64,000 nucleotides of DNA from an uncultured Bacilli bacterium (GTDB lineage Bacteria; Bacillota_I; Bacilli_A; RF39; UBA660), in the NCBI GenBank assembly GCA_944371305.1, contig CALVXM010000001.1:39600-103599 (forward strand), in the 5' to 3' direction. The notes beneath the pieces are model-generated. The model worked only from the letters and a program-made list of their open reading frames with translations. It searched no databases and was not told the DNA's origin. Shown here in pieces: positions 12,444 through 22,518 of this stretch. Made by a program: the position numbers and the translations under genes. How positions within the stretch are numbered: the stretch's first letter is position 1; each line of letters starts with the position of its first letter.

Positions 12444-13433
12444 TTATATCCATACCCCCCATAAAATAGCGATAGCAGCTAAAACGATACCAAAAAACCA
12501 AAACATTTTAACGATATCTAATTCATGCCATCCTAATTTTTCAAAATGATGATGTAGTGGTGTCATCAAAAATATTCGCTTACCAGTAAATCTCACCGAC
12601 AATCTTTGTAATACACATACCAATGTTTCAACAACAAATACACCAGCTACAATAATTAAAGTTAATTCGTGGCTTGATACAATTGAAACAGCTGCTAAAG
12701 TCCCCCCTAAAGCAAGTGATCCTGTATCACCCATAAATACTTTAGCAGGATATGTATTAAAGAAACAGAAAGCTATTAAAGCTCCTACTAATATAAAACA
12801 AAATACACCAATATCTTCATTTCCTTGAATACCAAGTGAGGCCCATGCTATCATACCAAAAGCTAAGAAAGCTATTGCCGATAAACCACCAGCTAAACCA
12901 TCTAAACCATCAGTTAAATTAACTGCATTAGTAGAAGCAACCAGCATTAATAATATCAATATCCAATAAAACCACCCAAGATTAATAGTTATGCCTAAAG
13001 TATATATCTCTAAAACTGGATCTCTACCACCCTTCATAAATAAAATGAAGAAAACCACCGCAATAAGTATTTGACCGATTAGTTTTTGAAATTCACTCAA
13101 TCCAATATTATTATGTCGTTTAATAATCAAATAATCATCGATAAATCCAAGTAAGGCATAAGCTAGAAAAACAAAAATAACAGTTCCTAAATTATAAGTC
13201 ATTTCTAACTTATTCATCAACAATAATATCACAACTGATAAAATAGTCGGAATAATAAATATTAATCCACCCATAGTTGGTGTACCATCTTTTTCTTTAT
13301 GTTTTGATAAGAAAACACTCACACTTTGTTTAATATTCATCTTTTTTAGTAATGGTATTAACACAACACCAAAAATAATCGATAAAATAAATCCTATCAT
13401 GAACGCTAATACAGCCTTTGCTAAAATTAACAC
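12444..13433 (-). CDS. mraY: Phospho-N-acetylmuramoyl-pentapeptide transferase
   Basis: 10-TM protein, NAVNLTDGLDGLA signature, HHHFE motif (PLHHHFEKLGW). Confidence 0.9.
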   Translation of the reverse strand: MLILAKAVLAFMIGFILSIIFGVVLIPLLKKMNIKQSVSVFLSKHKEKDGTPTMGGLIFIIPTILSVVILLLMNKLEMTYNLGTVIFVFLAYALLGFIDDYLIIKRHNNIGLSEFQKLIGQILIAVVFFILFMKGGRDPVLEIYTLGITINLGWFYWILILLMLVASTNAVNLTDGLDGLAGGLSAIAFLAFGMIAWASLGIQGNEDIGVFCFILVGALIAFCFFNTYPAKVFMGDTGSLALGGTLAAVSIVSSHELTLIIVAGVFVVETLVCVLQRLSVRFTGKRIFLMTPLHHHFEKLGWHELDIVKMFWFFGIVLAAIAILWGVWI

Positions 13434-13451
13434 ATCATCATCTCCAATTGT

Positions 13452-14774
13452 TTATATATTTTCTAGTACTATTTTTTTATCATCAAAATCATATTTTATA
13501 TTATTAATAATTTGATAAGTCTCATGACCTTTTCCCAACACCAATAGTATATCATTAAAAGATAACATTTGTATACCCTTTATAATCGCTTTTTCTCTAT
13601 TTAAAATAATTTCATAATTAAACTTGTCAAGATTATGTAACATATCACTGATGATATTATTCGGATTTTCACTTCTTGGATTATCATTAGTAAATATAAC
13701 ATAATCGCTATTAGAACAAGCTATATCACTCATAATCGGTCTTTTAAAACTGTCTCGATCTCCCCCACATCCGATAATCGTTATAATATGATTAGGATTT
13801 AATTCCTTAACTGCTTTAATAACATTCAAAACAGCATCTGGAGTATGAGCATAATCAATAATAATTAAATTACTATCTTTTTTTATGATATCCATTCTTC
13901 CAGGTGGACAAACTAATTGTTCTATAACACTAGTATCTAAATTTAATTCACTTAATAAAGCTATTACGACTAATATATTATATAAATTATGTTTCCCAAT
14001 TAATTTAGTTTTATAACTAATATCGTTGACTTTAAAAGAACTTCCTTCCAAATTAATTACATAATCAGTTAGTTTATAATCACCGGATCCGATTCCATAA
14101 GTAATACTATTGTCTTTAATAAAATAATCTTTATATAAATCATCAATGTTGACAAAAGTTTTATCAGTTACATTTTCAAATAATACCTGTTTAGCTTTAA
14201 TATAATTATCGAAAGATTTATGATAATCCAAATGATCTTCAGTTAAATTAGAAAAAATACCATATTTAAATTTTAATTTATCTAGTCTTTTCATATCCAA
14301 GGCATGGCTACTACATTCCATCACCACATATTCGATATTATTTTCTACACATGTTAATAATAATTCATAGATCTCTAGAATATCTGGAGTAGTATTGGAT
14401 AAATCTTTAATTTTTTCATCTAAATAAAAACCAATTGTTCCAATATAAGCACATTTAATTCCCAGTTTATTTAAAGCCTGATAAATTAAAAAACAAGTTG
14501 TCGTTTTACCATTAGTACCAGTCATTCCAATCAATTTTAAATTTTTAATTTGATCATAATAATTATCATATAAATAATTAACTAAATAATTATGTGTATC
14601 TTCAGTCACAATTGTTTCAACATCATAATTACCTTCTTCAACTATCACTTTACTAGCGCCATTTTTAATAGCATCTAAAATGTAATCATGACCATCATGT
14701 GTTTTTTTTAATGCCACAAATATATCACCTTTCACAACTTTTCGTGAATCGTCTTTTATATTCAAATTAATCAC
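13452..14774 (-). CDS. murE: Mur ligase, MurE type (UDP-MurNAc-L-Ala-D-Glu--diamino acid ligase), canonical DNPR motif
   Basis: P-loop GMTGTNGKTTT; MurE-specific IFTNDNPRSENP near C-terminus; upstream of mraY. Confidence 0.85.
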   Translation of the reverse strand: MINLNIKDDSRKVVKGDIFVALKKTHDGHDYILDAIKNGASKVIVEEGNYDVETIVTEDTHNYLVNYLYDNYYDQIKNLKLIGMTGTNGKTTTCFLIYQALNKLGIKCAYIGTIGFYLDEKIKDLSNTTPDILEIYELLLTCVENNIEYVVMECSSHALDMKRLDKLKFKYGIFSNLTEDHLDYHKSFDNYIKAKQVLFENVTDKTFVNIDDLYKDYFIKDNSITYGIGSGDYKLTDYVINLEGSSFKVNDISYKTKLIGKHNLYNILVVIALLSELNLDTSVIEQLVCPPGRMDIIKKDSNLIIIDYAHTPDAVLNVIKAVKELNPNHIITIIGCGGDRDSFKRPIMSDIACSNSDYVIFTNDNPRSENPNNIISDMLHNLDKFNYEIILNREKAIIKGIQMLSFNDILLVLGKGHETYQIINNIKYDFDDKKIVLENI

Positions 14775-14831
14775 CCATTATATTTTATTCAAATGGTTAA
14801 AAAATGTGGTAAAATATAGTTGGTGAAGATA

Positions 14832-16586
14832 ATGAAAAAAATTATTTTGTTATTAATTTTAATTTTTCCTTTTAAAATTACTGCTTTAGAACAAGCTGTT
14901 GTCGATATTAATGAATTAAATATTTATGAACTACAAGAATATGTCGACAAAGGATATTTAACTTATGAAAAAATCGTTAAACTATATTTAGATCGAATCA
15001 ACGAATATAATGAACAATATAACGCTTTAATCACAGTTAACGAAAATGCTTTAGAAGAGGCTAAAAAGTTAGATTTAGAATATCAAGAGAAAGGTAGACG
15101 TAGTCTAATTCATGGGCTACCAGTTATTGTAAAAGATAACATCGATGTTAAGGGATTACCTACTACTAATGGCGCTAAAGGATTGCTAGATGCCTATCCC
15201 AATGAAAATGCTGATGTCGTTCAAAAATTAATCGATAACGGCGCTATTATTATTGCCAAAGCTAATATGGATGAATTTGCTTTCAACGCTACTTATTCTC
15301 ATAGTAGTTTTGGCGATGTTTATAACGCTTATAATACTGCTTATTCATCTTATGGGTCTTCTGGGGGAAGTGCTGTTAGTGTAGCAAGTAATTTAGCCGT
15401 TTTTGCTTTAGGAACCGATACAGGAAGTTCAGTTAGAGTCCCAAGTAGTGCTAATGGTGTTGTTGGAATTAGACCTAGTTTTGATATTATGAGTGGTAAA
15501 GGTGTAATTAAATTTGAAGAAACAAGAGATGTTGTCGGTGTTATAACCAAATATGTTAGCGATAATGCCATTGTTTTAAACATTATCGATGAAGTCGATA
15601 TTAATTATGAACAATATTTAAATAAGCCACTAGATGGAATCAAGATAGCAGTCATCAAAGGATTTATGAATCCTAATACCAACAGTACTAGTGTGGCTTA
15701 TGGAAAAACTGACCAATTTATCTATGACATGATGAATGATGCTATTGAAGATTTAGAAAATTTGGGTGTTGAAATTATTTATCTAGATAATTTTTATTTA
15801 AATTATCAATTTGATGCCACAACAATGTGTTACAATTTTAATGAACATATAAAAAATACTTCTAGTAAAATTAGAAGTTTAGATGATTTAATTAAAAATG
15901 GTGGTTATACGCAATATATCGAAGGTTATAATGGTTATTATTGTAATCATGATTACAAATTAACAAACACTTATAAAAACTATATCAATAATCGTAATAA
16001 TAATATCAAAACTGCCAATAATAGATTTGAAAGTAATGATATTGATGCGATCATCTACCCTACTTTAAAAACAGAATTATATACTATCGAAGAAGCCAAA
16101 TATAAAAAAATTCACACTCCAAGTTCAGACACAGCACCTTTAATTGGATTCCCTGCTATGAGTATTTTAATTGGATACTATAATAATTTACCTTATGGTA
16201 TGGAAATAATGGCTCAAGCTAATAATGAAAAAGTTATTTATCAAATTGCTAGTGCTTATGAAAAATTGCACAATTATTATAAAACTCCTAGTATCGCTCC
16301 TAGTCTTTATGAAATACCTGATAATACTAATAAATTATTAGAATATTACGATAAATATAAAGACAATAAAAAATATGAAGAAATCAATAGTAAAGTTAAA
16401 AACTATTTAATTAATTTTGATGGTAATAGTGATAATATTAATAATTTAATTAACAAATATGAGGAAGAATTAGTAACCCCTGATATCAACAATGAAGATA
16501 ACATCAAAAACCAAAATTATAACTATATTATTATTTTACTAGGAGTATTGGTAGCTGTTATTATTATTAAGAAGGTGAGAAAATGA
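14832..16586 (+). CDS. Amidase-signature (AS) family amidase with N-terminal signal peptide and C-terminal TM anchor (predicted extracytoplasmic); start at ATG 14832 (ORF track uses upstream TTG)
   Basis: Signal-like N-terminus MKKIILLLILIFPFKITA; AS core GSSGGSAVSVA and GTDTGSSVRVP; C-terminal hydrophobic YIIILLGVLVAVIIIKKVRK. Confidence 0.75.
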   Translation: MKKIILLLILIFPFKITALEQAVVDINELNIYELQEYVDKGYLTYEKIVKLYLDRINEYNEQYNALITVNENALEEAKKLDLEYQEKGRRSLIHGLPVIVKDNIDVKGLPTTNGAKGLLDAYPNENADVVQKLIDNGAIIIAKANMDEFAFNATYSHSSFGDVYNAYNTAYSSYGSSGGSAVSVASNLAVFALGTDTGSSVRVPSSANGVVGIRPSFDIMSGKGVIKFEETRDVVGVITKYVSDNAIVLNIIDEVDINYEQYLNKPLDGIKIAVIKGFMNPNTNSTSVAYGKTDQFIYDMMNDAIEDLENLGVEIIYLDNFYLNYQFDATTMCYNFNEHIKNTSSKIRSLDDLIKNGGYTQYIEGYNGYYCNHDYKLTNTYKNYINNRNNNIKTANNRFESNDIDAIIYPTLKTELYTIEEAKYKKIHTPSSDTAPLIGFPAMSILIGYYNNLPYGMEIMAQANNEKVIYQIASAYEKLHNYYKTPSIAPSLYEIPDNTNKLLEYYDKYKDNKKYEEINSKVKNYLINFDGNSDNINNLINKYEEELVTPDINNEDNIKNQNYNYIIILLGVLVAVIIIKKVRK

Positions 16587-17995
16587 AATTAAATCAATTA
16601 ATCGATTGTCCTTATGATACTCTAATAACCGGCATTAAAACTAACTCGGTTAATATTCAAAAAGGAGATTTATTTATTTGTATCGATAGTAAGACAATGG
16701 ATCGTCATCTATTTATCGATGACGCTATTAAAAAAGGGGCAGCAGCCATTATCGTCAAAAATGATGTCAAAGAAAAATCTGTACCAATTATTAAAGTAGA
16801 TGACCCTAATGAAGTATTTGTCGATATTATCAATAAATTTTATAATTACCCTACTGATAAATTACAAATGATAGGAATAACTGGTACCGATGGTAAAACC
16901 ACAGTAGCTACAATTATTTATCAGTTGATAGATAATTGTGCCTATATTGGTACTAATGGTATTTTTTATAATAATCACAAAGAAAAGACAAACAATACTA
17001 CCCCCGCTTTAGATAAAACTTATCCCCTTTTCGTTGATATGATTAATAATAATATTAAAACCGTCAGTATGGAAGTATCTAGTGAAGCTATTTTATATGA
17101 ACGGGTTAGAGGCATAAAATTTAATTGTGCAATTTTGACTAATATTACAAAAGAACATTTAAATACTCATAAAACTTTAGAAAACTATATTAATTGCAAA
17201 TGTCAATTGTTTGAAAATACCATTGGACCTTGTATTTTAAATAAAGATGATGAACATTACTTAGAAGTAGCTAAACATTGTAATAAAACAGTATATACCT
17301 ATGGCAGTAAAGAAGATAACGATTTATATTTTAAAGATGTAATTTTGAAACATAATCAAACTATTTTTAAACTAGTTTATCAAAATAAAGAATATGAAAT
17401 TATTAGTCCTTTAATTGCTTTATTTAATGTCTATAATTTATGTGCTAGTATTTTAGCGTTAGTATCATTGGGTTACGATATTGATAAGATTATTAAAAAT
17501 ATTCCTAAATTAAATATTAGTGGACGACTTGAAAATATTGATTTAGGCCAAGATTTTAAAGTTATTGTCGATTATGCCCATACCCCTAATGGAATAGCTA
17601 AATTATTAGAATTTATCAATAGTTTAGACTTTAATCGTTTGATTGTCGTCTTTTCTGAACCCGGAGAAAGGGATAAATCAAAACGTGCTATTAAAGGTTA
17701 TAATGTCATTACTAATTGTGATTATGCAATTATAACTAGTCAAGATCCTAGAAGTGAAAATCCAATGGATATAGCTAATGATCTAATTAGTGATGTTAAA
17801 AATTATCAAAATTATGAAATTATTTTAAACCGTAGTGACGCTATTAAAAAAGCTATCGATATGGCTAAATCAAATGATATTGTTTTAATTCTTGGTAAAG
17901 GAAGTGAAAACTATCAAATTTTAAGTGATAAAATTATTGAATTTTGTGATATTGATGAAGTTAAAAAACATTTAAAAAATCTACTTTCAAAGTAG
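16583..17995 (+). CDS. Second Mur ligase, MurE-like paralogue with variant QDPR motif (candidate for adding a non-canonical residue to the peptide stem)
   Basis: P-loop GITGTDGKTTVA; C-terminal IITSQDPRSENP in place of DNPR; 470 aa; translationally coupled (4-nt overlap) to the amidase. Confidence 0.8.
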   Translation: MKLNQLIDCPYDTLITGIKTNSVNIQKGDLFICIDSKTMDRHLFIDDAIKKGAAAIIVKNDVKEKSVPIIKVDDPNEVFVDIINKFYNYPTDKLQMIGITGTDGKTTVATIIYQLIDNCAYIGTNGIFYNNHKEKTNNTTPALDKTYPLFVDMINNNIKTVSMEVSSEAILYERVRGIKFNCAILTNITKEHLNTHKTLENYINCKCQLFENTIGPCILNKDDEHYLEVAKHCNKTVYTYGSKEDNDLYFKDVILKHNQTIFKLVYQNKEYEIISPLIALFNVYNLCASILALVSLGYDIDKIIKNIPKLNISGRLENIDLGQDFKVIVDYAHTPNGIAKLLEFINSLDFNRLIVVFSEPGERDKSKRAIKGYNVITNCDYAIITSQDPRSENPMDIANDLISDVKNYQNYEIILNRSDAIKKAIDMAKSNDIVLILGKGSENYQILSDKIIEFCDIDEVKKHLKNLLSK

Positions 17996-18005
17996 ATTTT
18001 TTATT
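17975..18005. terminator. Bidirectional intrinsic terminator between murE-like (+) and Doc/Fic-like (-) genes
   Basis: A-run, hairpin ctactttcaaagtag, T-run; overlaps the TAG stop of the murE-like gene. Confidence 0.65.
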
Positions 18006-18011
18006 ATATAT

Positions 18012-18815
18012 TTATTTTTTTATATAAGTCTTTTCTTCATCTTTTTTTAATTCTTCTGAAATATCCAAATCATAAATAGAATCACATATTTTATAGTAAT
18101 AAAATTGATTTAAAGAAGTATAATCTCTTTTTTTCATAGCTTTCATTAAAGCATCTTTATATTCAGCTCGCTCTTTTGTTTTAACATAAACAGGCGGTAA
18201 ATTATATTGTTTAAACATCAAATTTAATAAAGCTCTAAATGTTCTTTTATTTCCATCATTAAACGGTTGTACTCTAATTAATTCGGTAGTAACATAAATA
18301 CAAGCATTAATATAATCAAATATCGAATAAGGATCATTAAAATCAACTTTAGGTAAATCTTTACCAATGAATGATTGAAAATAACTTCTCGCTTCTTCAT
18401 AATTAGGAACTTCGATAATTTCATTTTTTAAAACAGCAGAACCATCTCTTAACTTTCCCCCAAACTCTGGATAAGGACATTCAGAAAATAATAACATATG
18501 AATTTTCATTGCTTCGATGAATATATCAAATTTTTGTTTACTAAAGTCATAACTTTTGATATATTCATAAGCTTTAGCTAGGCCTTTTCTCTCCTCTTCT
18601 AAAAGAGTTTGATCGATTCGACTTTCATTATATAAATAATATCTTTTAAAATTATCGTAAATTATTTTAAAATGTGGTTTTTGATTAGATTTATAATACA
18701 TCGTAATAATTTGTTCTGGAATTAAACTATCTTTTTTATACAAACGATGTTCTTCTTTTCTTTTTCGATAACCTTCAAATACTAAAACAATAAAATCTCT
18801 TAATTCATTTTCCAT
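18012..18815 (-). CDS. Fic/Doc-family protein with non-canonical motif QPFNDGNKR (Doc-like HxFxD(A/G)NKR signature but with Gln replacing the catalytic His)
   Basis: Sequence IRVQPFNDGNKRTFRALLNLMF at residues about 180-200 of 267; no adjacent Phd-like antitoxin ORF. Confidence 0.55.
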   Translation of the reverse strand: MENELRDFIVLVFEGYRKRKEEHRLYKKDSLIPEQIITMYYKSNQKPHFKIIYDNFKRYYLYNESRIDQTLLEEERKGLAKAYEYIKSYDFSKQKFDIFIEAMKIHMLLFSECPYPEFGGKLRDGSAVLKNEIIEVPNYEEARSYFQSFIGKDLPKVDFNDPYSIFDYINACIYVTTELIRVQPFNDGNKRTFRALLNLMFKQYNLPPVYVKTKERAEYKDALMKAMKKRDYTSLNQFYYYKICDSIYDLDISEELKKDEEKTYIKK

Positions 18816-18850
18816 ATAATCCCCTCCTTAGTAGTTTCATATTATATTTC

Positions 18851-18885
18851 AAATTAAAACGTTTGTCAAATTGACAAACGTATCA
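18851..18885 (-). terminator. Intrinsic terminator downstream of the membrane-Mur ligase gene
   Basis: Hairpin aacgtttgtcaaattgacaaacgt with flanking T-rich run on the minus strand. Confidence 0.6.
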
Positions 18886-20478
18886 TTATTTTTCATTAAA
18901 CACATCTGGTAAATCGTTTTCTAATAAAATATAAGTTTCTTGATTATTAAAATATGTTTGAGCTATTTTGATAGCTTCTTTAACATCATTTAAAACCAGC
19001 AATTTCTTATTATCAAAGCCAGCTTCGATAATTCCTTTTTGAATTGGTTTAGTTTGTTCAGATCCTACTAAAATGGCTAAATCAACAGAAGTAGCAATAA
19101 ATTTACCAAAATTATAATTAACTTCGTATTGCTTATCACCCATTTCAATCATCCCCGGTGTGATAACAATTTTTTTACCTGGCATCAATTTCAAAACATC
19201 TAAAGCCATTTTAGAACCGATTGGATTTGAATTATAAGCATCATCAATATAAGTTAGATGACCATATTTTTTAATTTGCAGACGATGTTCAATCGGTTTA
19301 ATTTGATTAACTCCTCTTTGCAATTCATTGATATTTAATCCTAATTCATACCCAACGGCAATACCAGCCAAAATATTATAAACATTCGCATCCCCTAATA
19401 ATTTGGTATTAAATTCATAAGATTTTTTATCACCTTTAAAGTGAACTTTAAAATTCATGCCACTACTAGAATATTTAATGTCACTAGCGTAGACATCAGC
19501 TTTATCGCTTAATCCATACCAAACTATTTTTATTTTATTTTTTAAATTGTATTTAACTTGTAATTCATCATCAATATTTAAAAAACCAACTCCATTTGGT
19601 GGTAAACTTTCGATAAGTTCAAATTTAGCTTGTGTCGTATTGGCAATAGATCCGAATGTATCTAAATGAGCTGTCCCTATTTTAGTTAAAACACCATATT
19701 TAGGTTTTACTATACTAGCTCGTGATTTAATATCCCCTTTTCTAAATGCCCCTAATTCAGCGATAAAATAATCGTTATATTTATCAATATATTCGTTAAT
19801 AGTTCTAATTAAACCATAATTGGTATTAAAATTTTGCGGAGTTGGAAAGGCGATGTATTTTATATTTAAGATATCATTAATAATATTTTTAGTACTAGTT
19901 TTACCATAACTACCTGTAACGCCAATAACTTCCATGTTATTTAAAGTTTTTAACTTTTTCATAGCCTTACTTTTATAATATAAATATACTAATTTTTCAA
20001 CTGGTTTATTGATAATATTAACTAGGTAAACAATATGATAGTTAAAATAAATTAAACTACCTAAAATAAAATAATATAAAAATAAATTAGACTCATTGAA
20101 TGTTAAAAATATCAAGATAAGAGGAATACTATATAAAATTAAAGTAGTGATACACATTCTTTTAATTCTACTAGTAAAAGCAAGTGGTTTTTTTACCTGT
20201 TCATTTCGATATTTATTTAATAATACATATGATAAAAGGAAATAATATACTGTTATAATGACACTAAGTAAATTATTATCGATAAAAATACCAAGAATAA
20301 CAATGAATAAATATAGATAATCTAACCAAGTAAAAATAAAAGAAGCATTATTATTGATCCATTTTAAATAACGATTACCATCATTGTACCAATTTTGTTG
20401 AAGCATATGAAAAGCTTTTTTTAAATCAATGATAGTATAAACTAACATACTTAGTAAAGCCAAAAGAAATAAATTCAT
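18886..20478 (-). CDS. Mur ligase family protein (MurF-like C-terminal DDAYNSNP motif) with an unusual N-terminal polytopic membrane domain of about 170 aa
   Basis: About 5 predicted TM helices in residues 1-170; P-loop GVTGSYGKTSTKNII; DDAYNSNPIGS motif; 530 aa. Confidence 0.7.
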   Translation of the reverse strand: MNLFLLALLSMLVYTIIDLKKAFHMLQQNWYNDGNRYLKWINNNASFIFTWLDYLYLFIVILGIFIDNNLLSVIITVYYFLLSYVLLNKYRNEQVKKPLAFTSRIKRMCITTLILYSIPLILIFLTFNESNLFLYYFILGSLIYFNYHIVYLVNIINKPVEKLVYLYYKSKAMKKLKTLNNMEVIGVTGSYGKTSTKNIINDILNIKYIAFPTPQNFNTNYGLIRTINEYIDKYNDYFIAELGAFRKGDIKSRASIVKPKYGVLTKIGTAHLDTFGSIANTTQAKFELIESLPPNGVGFLNIDDELQVKYNLKNKIKIVWYGLSDKADVYASDIKYSSSGMNFKVHFKGDKKSYEFNTKLLGDANVYNILAGIAVGYELGLNINELQRGVNQIKPIEHRLQIKKYGHLTYIDDAYNSNPIGSKMALDVLKLMPGKKIVITPGMIEMGDKQYEVNYNFGKFIATSVDLAILVGSEQTKPIQKGIIEAGFDNKKLLVLNDVKEAIKIAQTYFNNQETYILLENDLPDVFNEK

Positions 20479-22020: not shown

Positions 22021-22410
22021 TCATTCTCCATTAACTTTAAAATTTCCATCACTTTGTAATTCAAATTCATAGTTATTACTCTTTATTTTTAATTTGGTTA
22101 CTTTACCATTTTGATATTTGACTTCTAAGACTTCCGCATTCCCTAAACTCACCATTTTGCTAACATCATCAATGGTTACTCCATCATCATCATTACATAT
22201 ATCTGTACTTTCATCTAATTGATTCTTCATTGCTGATGTCGCACAATAATTATTAATGCCACTTAATATCATACTTGCTTCTGATTTTCCCGCACTCTTT
22301 CTAGCATCTTCAATCACATTTAATATGATTGGGGTTGCTATTAGGGCTATTATAGCTAATATTATTATGACTGCTAATAATTCAATCAATGTAAATCCGC
22401 ATTTCTTCAT
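22021..22410 (-). CDS. Prepilin-type N-terminal cleavage/methylation domain protein (pilin-like family member B, the only intact copy); start at ATG 22410 after a GGAGG Shine-Dalgarno (ORF track extends to a GTG at 22425)
   Basis: MKKCGFTLIELLAVIIILAIIALIATPIIL: class III signal peptide with G(-1) F(+1) E(+5); about 129 aa. Confidence 0.8.
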   Translation of the reverse strand: MKKCGFTLIELLAVIIILAIIALIATPIILNVIEDARKSAGKSEASMILSGINNYCATSAMKNQLDESTDICNDDDGVTIDDVSKMVSLGNAEVLEVKYQNGKVTKLKIKSNNYEFELQSDGNFKVNGE

Positions 22411-22518
22411 AAGTATTCTCCTCACTTTCTTATAACTTATTTATTTAATTAATATATTCTAATAATAAGTTATATTTTTGATATAAGGTATTTCTTTTAA
22501 TTGCGATATTAACAAATA

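Follow-up and report, generated by a model that had tools for sequence, protein, structure and literature searches.

Glutamine and lysine in the active-site loop of a class II-type Fic protein of gut Bacilli

Every Fic or Doc enzyme characterised so far needs the histidine of its active-site motif for catalysis; this residue is the general base in AMPylation, and Glu234 of FICD is the base in deAMPylation (PMC12409994). What, then, is the role of a Fic-fold protein that has a glutamine in this place? The question is posed by a gene in the window, i.e. the whole stretch of 64,000 nucleotides of DNA from an uncultured Bacilli bacterium that was analysed here. We denote active-site variants by the residues at motif positions 1 and 8, Q/K being the variant of the window protein and H/G the canonical one. 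The gene, its signals and the relevant regions of its product are, with the evidence for each:

18012..18815, minus strand: gene for a Fic-fold protein of class II type with the Q/K active-site variant, 267 aa (intact open reading frame)
18234..18269, minus strand: active-site loop QPFNDGNKRTFR, residues 183-194 (residue-level alignments to FICD, invariance in the family, Q/K versus H/G contrast)
18405..18464, minus strand: flap region, residues ~118-137, FGGKLR...IEVP (alignment to 'aGrfR' of FICD, conservation, strand element in the structure model)
18612..18674, minus strand: N-terminal helix, residues ~48-68 (…YLYNESRID), candidate regulatory or inhibitory region (helix 49-67 of the model, invariance of E64)
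18823..18829, minus strand: Shine-Dalgarno sequence AAGGAGG, 7 nt upstream of the ATG (read off the sequence)
18841..18869, minus strand: sigma-70-type promoter TTGACA-17 nt-TATAAT, matching the consensus at 12/12 positions, ~25 nt upstream of the start codon (sequence scan and reading)
18859..18881, minus strand: hairpin with a 10-bp stem followed by a T-rich tail, terminator-like, for the upstream Mur-ligase gene (terminator scan)

The Fic assignment made in the first-pass annotation holds. The protein scores 28.6 bits with Pfam PF02661 (Fic; gathering cutoff 24, E=2.6e-6), the profile of its family matches FICD with E=1e-13, and it has the alpha-helical Fic fold, in which two helices flank the active-site loop. 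In a phmmer search against the PDB, the segment 'lirvQPFNDGNKRTFRALLNL' was aligned to 'lvyiHPFIDGNGRTSRLLMNL' of FICD, and according to the alignments Gln183 occupies the position of the catalytic His and Lys190 that of the second glycine (G2) of GNGR. The motif region, whose identity had been put up for checking, is thus the Fic active-site loop; the Gln at the His position and the Doc-like NKR signature noticed at first reading are both confirmed, the latter residing in Lys190. Both His at motif position 1 and Gly at G2, as found in canonical AMP transferases, are absent. All other motif residues are canonical and invariant: the Phe (F185), the Asp/Glu for Mg2+ (D187), Gly-Asn (G188, N189), the first Arg (R191) and the final Arg (R194).

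Judged by sequence, the Doc-like character of the window protein is restricted to Lys190. Doc is a minimal Fido core of ~125 aa that has no flap and carries the motif HxFxD(A/G)NKR without the final Arg. The window protein possesses a flap and R194, scores 16.7 bits with the Doc model TIGR01550 (DOC_P1), below the cutoff of 38.65, and has no antitoxin gene next to it, for which reasons we regard it as a Fic and not a Doc protein. By structure and profile scores, it groups with class II Fic proteins and not with class I toxin-antitoxin-type Fic or Doc.

In the flap, which we take to be the target-docking element as in other Fic proteins, G119, G120 and R123 are invariant in Q/K and H/G relatives alike. 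The regular expression for the canonical inhibitory motif (S/T)xxxE(G/N) has no match in the window protein, and upstream of the active-site motif it matches in no more than 11 out of 55 members of the family. In HHalign, the canonical motif of other class II proteins falls on the segment YYxxxxKPxF, with low confidence in this region, and the invariant E64 is aligned, likewise in a low-confidence region, to a later Glu ('LLxTE'). In the N-terminal helix of the family, E64 is accompanied by D or E at position 68. The PADLOC models PDC-S04 (SoFic) match the protein with E=1.8e-11, which reflects generic Fic-domain similarity; the neighbours are housekeeping genes and vary between lineages, and we do not read the match as a sign of anti-phage defence.

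The gene has a GC content of 24% (window: 26%) and is the only Fic gene within the window. The terminator scan gave two terminator-like sites, with 0.1 expected. One of them, the hairpin 18859..18881, is a perfect palindrome with a 10-bp stem, ACGTTTGTCAA-T-TTGACAAACGT, and the -35 box TTGACA of the Fic promoter lies inside its 3' arm. The upstream Mur-ligase gene seems to be terminated by this hairpin, whose palindrome could serve as an operator site too. In type II toxin-antitoxin modules (Phd-Doc, FicTA), a small antitoxin gene adjoins the toxin gene, usually upstream and overlapping. No antitoxin-like ORF adjoins the Fic gene in the window or in the homologous loci compared, in agreement with what had been noted for the window at first reading. 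A role as toxin is hard to reconcile with a strong predicted promoter and no antitoxin to guard against its product.

The gene lies in a cell-wall cluster (12444..20478; domain labels taken from a syntenic locus at 79% identity), which comprises three Mur-ligase paralogues (13452..14774, minus strand; 16583..17995, plus strand; 18886..20478, minus strand), an amidase with a signal peptide or TM anchor (14820..16586, plus strand) and an MraY-like gene (12444..13433, minus strand). The Mur ligase at 18886..20478 is unusual in being extended at its N-terminus by ~150 aa, in which several transmembrane segments are predicted. Elsewhere in the window, a 134-aa ORF (22021..22425, minus strand) has a prepilin/pseudopilin-type N-terminus, FTLIELLAVIIILAIIA, as in ComGC and type IV pilins. 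The Mur-ligase/amidase/MraY surroundings do not extend beyond close relatives at 79% identity; in family members at 60%, 44% and 37% identity the Fic gene stands among unrelated housekeeping genes, and this neighbourhood was discarded as a functional clue. Comparison of neighbours at 26 loci gave one recurrent association, infC-rpmI-rplT (IF3, L35, L20), near the Fic gene in 6 of the 26 (L016, L018, L020, L025, L009 and L010, with L020 being a canonical H/G member) and absent from the window itself. In two divergent Q/K members the Fic gene follows rplT at a distance of 53-77 nt. This suggests an old chromosomal locus where H/G and Q/K forms are orthologous; as a pointer to translation it is weak at best.

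The family as a whole leaves little doubt that the Gln is genuine. A search of 5.8 billion proteins returned 259 homologues, and among the 120 closest clusters inspected, 116 carry Q(P/M)FxDGNKR, down to ~36% identity; the other four read HPFxDGNGR. On the second point that had been marked for checking, orthologues thus carry Gln and not His. An identical protein (P0001) was assembled independently, and dN/dS is ~0.13-0.20 against orthologues at 65-79% identity, from which we conclude that the window gene is under purifying selection. With these three observations, a sequencing error or pseudogene is ruled out. Among species-representative genomes, the full-length family is found only in MAGs of uncultured gut 'Bacilli/Tenericutes'; it has an N-terminal region of its own as well as a C-terminal FYYYKICDSI helix. 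In the longer members, Fic is the sole domain seen, with one exception: P0142 (564 aa, an H/G relative) ends in a sigma-70 region 2 (PF04542, E=1e-7), which may be a genuine fusion or an artefact of gene calling. A Q/K subclade of ~320-346 aa (P0098-P0121) carries a charged insertion of ~45-60 residues between alpha3 and the flap (alignment columns ~164-218), probably a coiled coil. P0099 has Met for Pro in the motif (QMFNDGNKR).

The two unusual residues come together. When 1.84 billion cluster representatives were searched exhaustively with a profile, 4,382 matches were obtained, 99 of them at E<=1e-30, and motif states were read from the best 150 of these matches, listed as representatives at 50% identity. 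Among the same-architecture proteins in this list, 89 are H/G, 27 Q/K and 5 H/K, three show odd states, and Q/G does not occur. Where His is missing, Gln replaces it in 27 of 28 of the 150 listed representatives and in all 115 of the closest-cluster set; P0212 (CPFNDGNER), a family representative, is an exception to the motif rules. That a lost His nearly always becomes Gln speaks for a specific function of the amide and against relaxed constraint. As an independent test, IMG/VR was scanned with four DNA patterns of equal degeneracy, giving 21 Q/K loci, at least 120 each of H/K and H/G, and two of Q/G. One of these two is a spurious frame of 66 codons, the other (L111) a real Fic protein of 257 aa with QPFQDGNGR. 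Gln thus appears to be tolerated essentially only with Lys, and His to pair with either Gly or Lys.

In a neighbour-joining tree, computed without support values, most Q/K members form one large clade, and a second Q/K pair is nested among H/G proteins beside an H/K member. This topology suggests at least two origins of Q/K inside the family, via H/K intermediates; the likely order of change is G-to-K followed by H-to-Q, probably more than once. In a comparison of members sharing this architecture, 49 of them Q/K and 27 H/G, the phosphate, metal and flap residues P184, F185, D187, G188, N189, R191, R194, G120 and R123 were invariant in both sets. Only about six positions, in the second shell, switch together with the motif: 142 (Ala in Q/K, Ile in H/G), 193 (Phe; Ile/Met/Val), 122 (Leu; mostly Phe), 136 (Val; variable), 223 (Leu; Met) and 71 (variable in Q/K, a conserved His in H/G). 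The active site of the Q/K members looks retuned, not abandoned.

The motif is not confined to this family. The peptide pattern QPFxDGNKR matched more than 599 stretches in species-representative genomes, and the proteins that carry it in Proteobacteria, Bacteroidota, Patescibacteria and DPANN archaea represent six or more Fic architectures besides that of the window protein:

~456 aa: Burkholderiales, Pantoea, Dyella
~346 aa: Bacteroidota
~246 aa: Bacteroides, Tannerellaceae
~350 aa: Patescibacteria
~260 aa: DPANN archaea
~335 aa: Rhodocyclaceae

Most of them keep the textbook SxxxEG(N) inhibitory motif, and several subfamilies have N-terminal regions that read as HTH-like. Among curated NCBIfam models none claims these architectures, and no solved structure was found for them. 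The Bacteroides-type protein of 246 aa had 2,298 database matches, cultured species included, annotated as 'Fic family protein'; among the 120 listed, 113 combine Q/K and the final Arg, and the listed sequences are all very close, hence uninformative on independent H-to-Q transitions. Its inhibitory motif is the canonical SGKIEGN, and sequences are 82-99% identical across Bacteroides, Dysgonomonas and Mangrovibacterium. Loci of this type are L069 (Bacteroides graminisolvens), L094, L099, L103, L104, L106, L108 and L109. It is present on IMG/VR contigs too, from which we gather that it is probably carried by mobile elements.

Three further IMG/VR contigs (L092, L096, L102) encode Q-type proteins that are Doc by the model (134-141 aa, QPF[IL]DGNKR without final Arg, 41-54 bits with TIGR01550, above its cutoff). 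Upstream of each lies an ORF of 74-94 aa that abuts or overlaps it; two of the three ORFs match the MazE/AbrB antitoxin family PF04014, and the third has no family match. A kept antitoxin gene points to a harmful product, and hence to a catalytically competent Q-type Doc site. By this line of argument, these genes would weigh against a blanket reading of Q/K sites as dead enzymes, keeping in mind that the Doc-type architecture differs from that of the window protein in having neither flap nor final Arg.

We tentatively favour, and stop short of calling probable, the reading that the window protein is an active, non-AMPylating Fic enzyme that holds its ligand in a non-canonical pose and performs phosphoryl transfer or hydrolysis. 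It would be a cytoplasmic, separately transcribed and vertically inherited protein found in uncultured gut Bacilli of low GC ('Tenericutes'-like MAGs), with an active site that is rewired and not lost. The side chain of Lys190 at G2 would block the canonical ATP pose, and with it AMP transfer. A Mg-nucleotide or another phosphoryl ligand would still be bound, most likely in a Doc-like inverted orientation, and a protein docked at the flap may be the substrate. Gln cannot serve as general base; in Ras-like GTPases, a catalytic Gln positions a water molecule. In the window protein, the amide of Gln183 might position the nucleophile, either a hydroxyl of the target or water, and Lys and Arg residues might stabilise the transition state. 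As to the target, translation factors would be a first guess, since Doc, an EF-Tu kinase, and SoFic both act on EF-Tu and infC-rpmI-rplT lies beside the gene in several lineages. That canonical AMP transfer is not to be expected rests on a structural analysis in which any side chain at G2 prevents canonical triphosphate/NTP binding (PMC8401265), and on the role of the His as general base (PMC12409994). In Doc, the Lys at G2 goes along with an inverted ATP orientation and with kinase instead of AMP-transferase chemistry (PMC8401265).

One may go further and see in the Q/K site a distinct catalytic class of the Fido fold that evolved recurrently across bacteria and archaea, with Lys flipping or displacing the nucleotide and Gln positioning water or a hydroxyl in a Ras-like manner. 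Such proteins would be hydrolases ('erasers' or NTPases) or phosphotransferases with a chemistry undescribed for Fic, and in the reduced gut Bacilli they would act as constitutive housekeeping regulators, possibly of translation factors. Taken as a whole, we consider this broader proposal speculative and rather unlikely.

The conservation on which the active reading draws would, however, equally be expected of a high-affinity, non-catalytic binder of nucleotides or phosphoproteins. The window protein could accordingly be a pseudoenzyme with a pocket for nucleotides, for ligands of pyrophosphate type or for proteins that are AMPylated or phosphorylated. It would then work as a sensor, reader, scaffold or, in a term of the first-pass annotation, a competitive 'decoy' regulator, and would leave its target unmodified; we regard this as possible, with some doubt. 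It would account for a missing general base next to conserved ligand-binding residues, and the strong promoter together with the lack of an antitoxin suggests a protein that is evidently non-toxic. BepC provides a precedent for a FIC domain engaged in protein-protein interaction with no known catalysis (PMC8401265), and the HTH-like N-termini of several other Q/K subfamilies would suit ligand-responsive regulators. On the other hand, relaxed constraint should have left varied residues at the His position, whereas almost only Gln is seen, and that tied to Lys; the Mg2+-binding Asp is invariant; and the antitoxin genes upstream of the Q-type Doc proteins imply a harmful activity.

That the protein is a conventional AMP (NMP) transferase, able to work with Gln, binding ATP in the canonical pose and retaining weak residual AMPylation, seems very improbable to us. 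Khater & Mohanty note that IbpA with Ala for His keeps residual activity, as do unrelated H-to-Q mutants (PMC4454073), and the remainder of the motif is Fic-like up to the final Arg, but the Lys at G2 is expected to block canonical triphosphate binding (PMC8401265), the coupling of Gln to Lys would go unexplained, and H/G relatives of the same architecture in the same group of organisms mark Q/K as a distinct selected state. Hardly any credence is left for a decaying or inactivated Fic/Doc toxin, as the first-pass annotation had proposed among other readings, or for a strain-specific or sequencing artefact: the lack of both catalytic His and antitoxin is what a dead orphan toxin would show, but the class II fold is not that of a toxin-antitoxin-type class I Fic or Doc, the ORF is intact with the GC content of its surroundings, a consensus promoter and low dN/dS, an identical copy was assembled independently, the loci are chromosomal and partly syntenic, all metal and phosphate ligands are kept, and Gln and Lys persist in an identical motif in more than 100 homologue clusters, a degree of conservation that effectively refutes decay.

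Which of the readings applies matters beyond this gene. Fic enzymology is built on an 'invariant' His, and many Fic proteins under strong selection have replaced it, nearly always by the same residue and essentially only in a Lys background, including thousands of copies in human-gut Bacteroides and Q-type Doc toxins with antitoxins. If active, these proteins use an uncharacterised reaction mechanism on unknown targets in abundant gut commensals; if binders, they make up a widespread family of Fic pseudoenzymes, the first of its kind. In both cases, G-to-K followed by H-to-Q is a concrete, testable mutational path, and homologues from cultured species (Bacteroides graminisolvens, B. heparinolyticus) make its testing practical.

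The Gln variant itself is already known. Working in silico, Khater & Mohanty (2015) described a 'Doc clade D2' of 45 bacterial sequences whose motif is Qx[F|Y]x[D|E][G|V]NKR, and argued from selection that these proteins are probably not dead (PMC4454073). Our literature search found no experimental work on Q...NKR, i.e. Q/K, Fic proteins. The motif of the window protein, QPFNDGNKR, fits the D2 definition and shares with it the Gln for His and the NKR. D2 is, however, described as Doc-like, single-domain and restricted to bacteria, whereas structure and profile scores speak against placing the 267-aa window protein, a class II-type Fic with flap and final Arg, in the Doc clade. To the 2015 description, the present analysis adds a non-Doc, class II-type family carrying the Gln variant; its occurrence in many architectures (at least six further ones), DPANN archaea included; the coupling of Gln to Lys with H/K intermediates, neither described in that report, and the evidence for repeated origin; co-switching second-shell residues; and Q-type Doc toxins with upstream ORFs, two of which match MazE/AbrB.

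Among other Fic proteins with altered loops, the Bartonella Beps retain the canonical Fic fold and loop; Bep8 has a Glu at G2 that excludes canonical NTP binding, BepC a Lys in place of the Mg-binding Asp/Glu, and alternative chemistry or pure binding have been proposed as their functions (PMC8401265). They differ from the window protein in being effectors that are secreted to act on a host and that descend from a FicTA module, and in having variant residues other than the Q/K pair; the window protein is chromosomal and belongs to gut commensals. With Doc, the P1 death-on-curing toxin (TIGR01550), it has in common the Lys at G2 (…NKR). Closest by class are FICD/HYPE and the bacterial class II Fic proteins (BT_2513, 3cuc; SoFic; CdFic). 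Compared with these, the window protein has Gln for the His and Lys for the second Gly, lacks a detectable (S/T)xxxE(G/N) motif as well as a TPR or wHTH accessory domain, and adds the N-terminal region and the C-terminal FYYYKICDSI helix of its own family.
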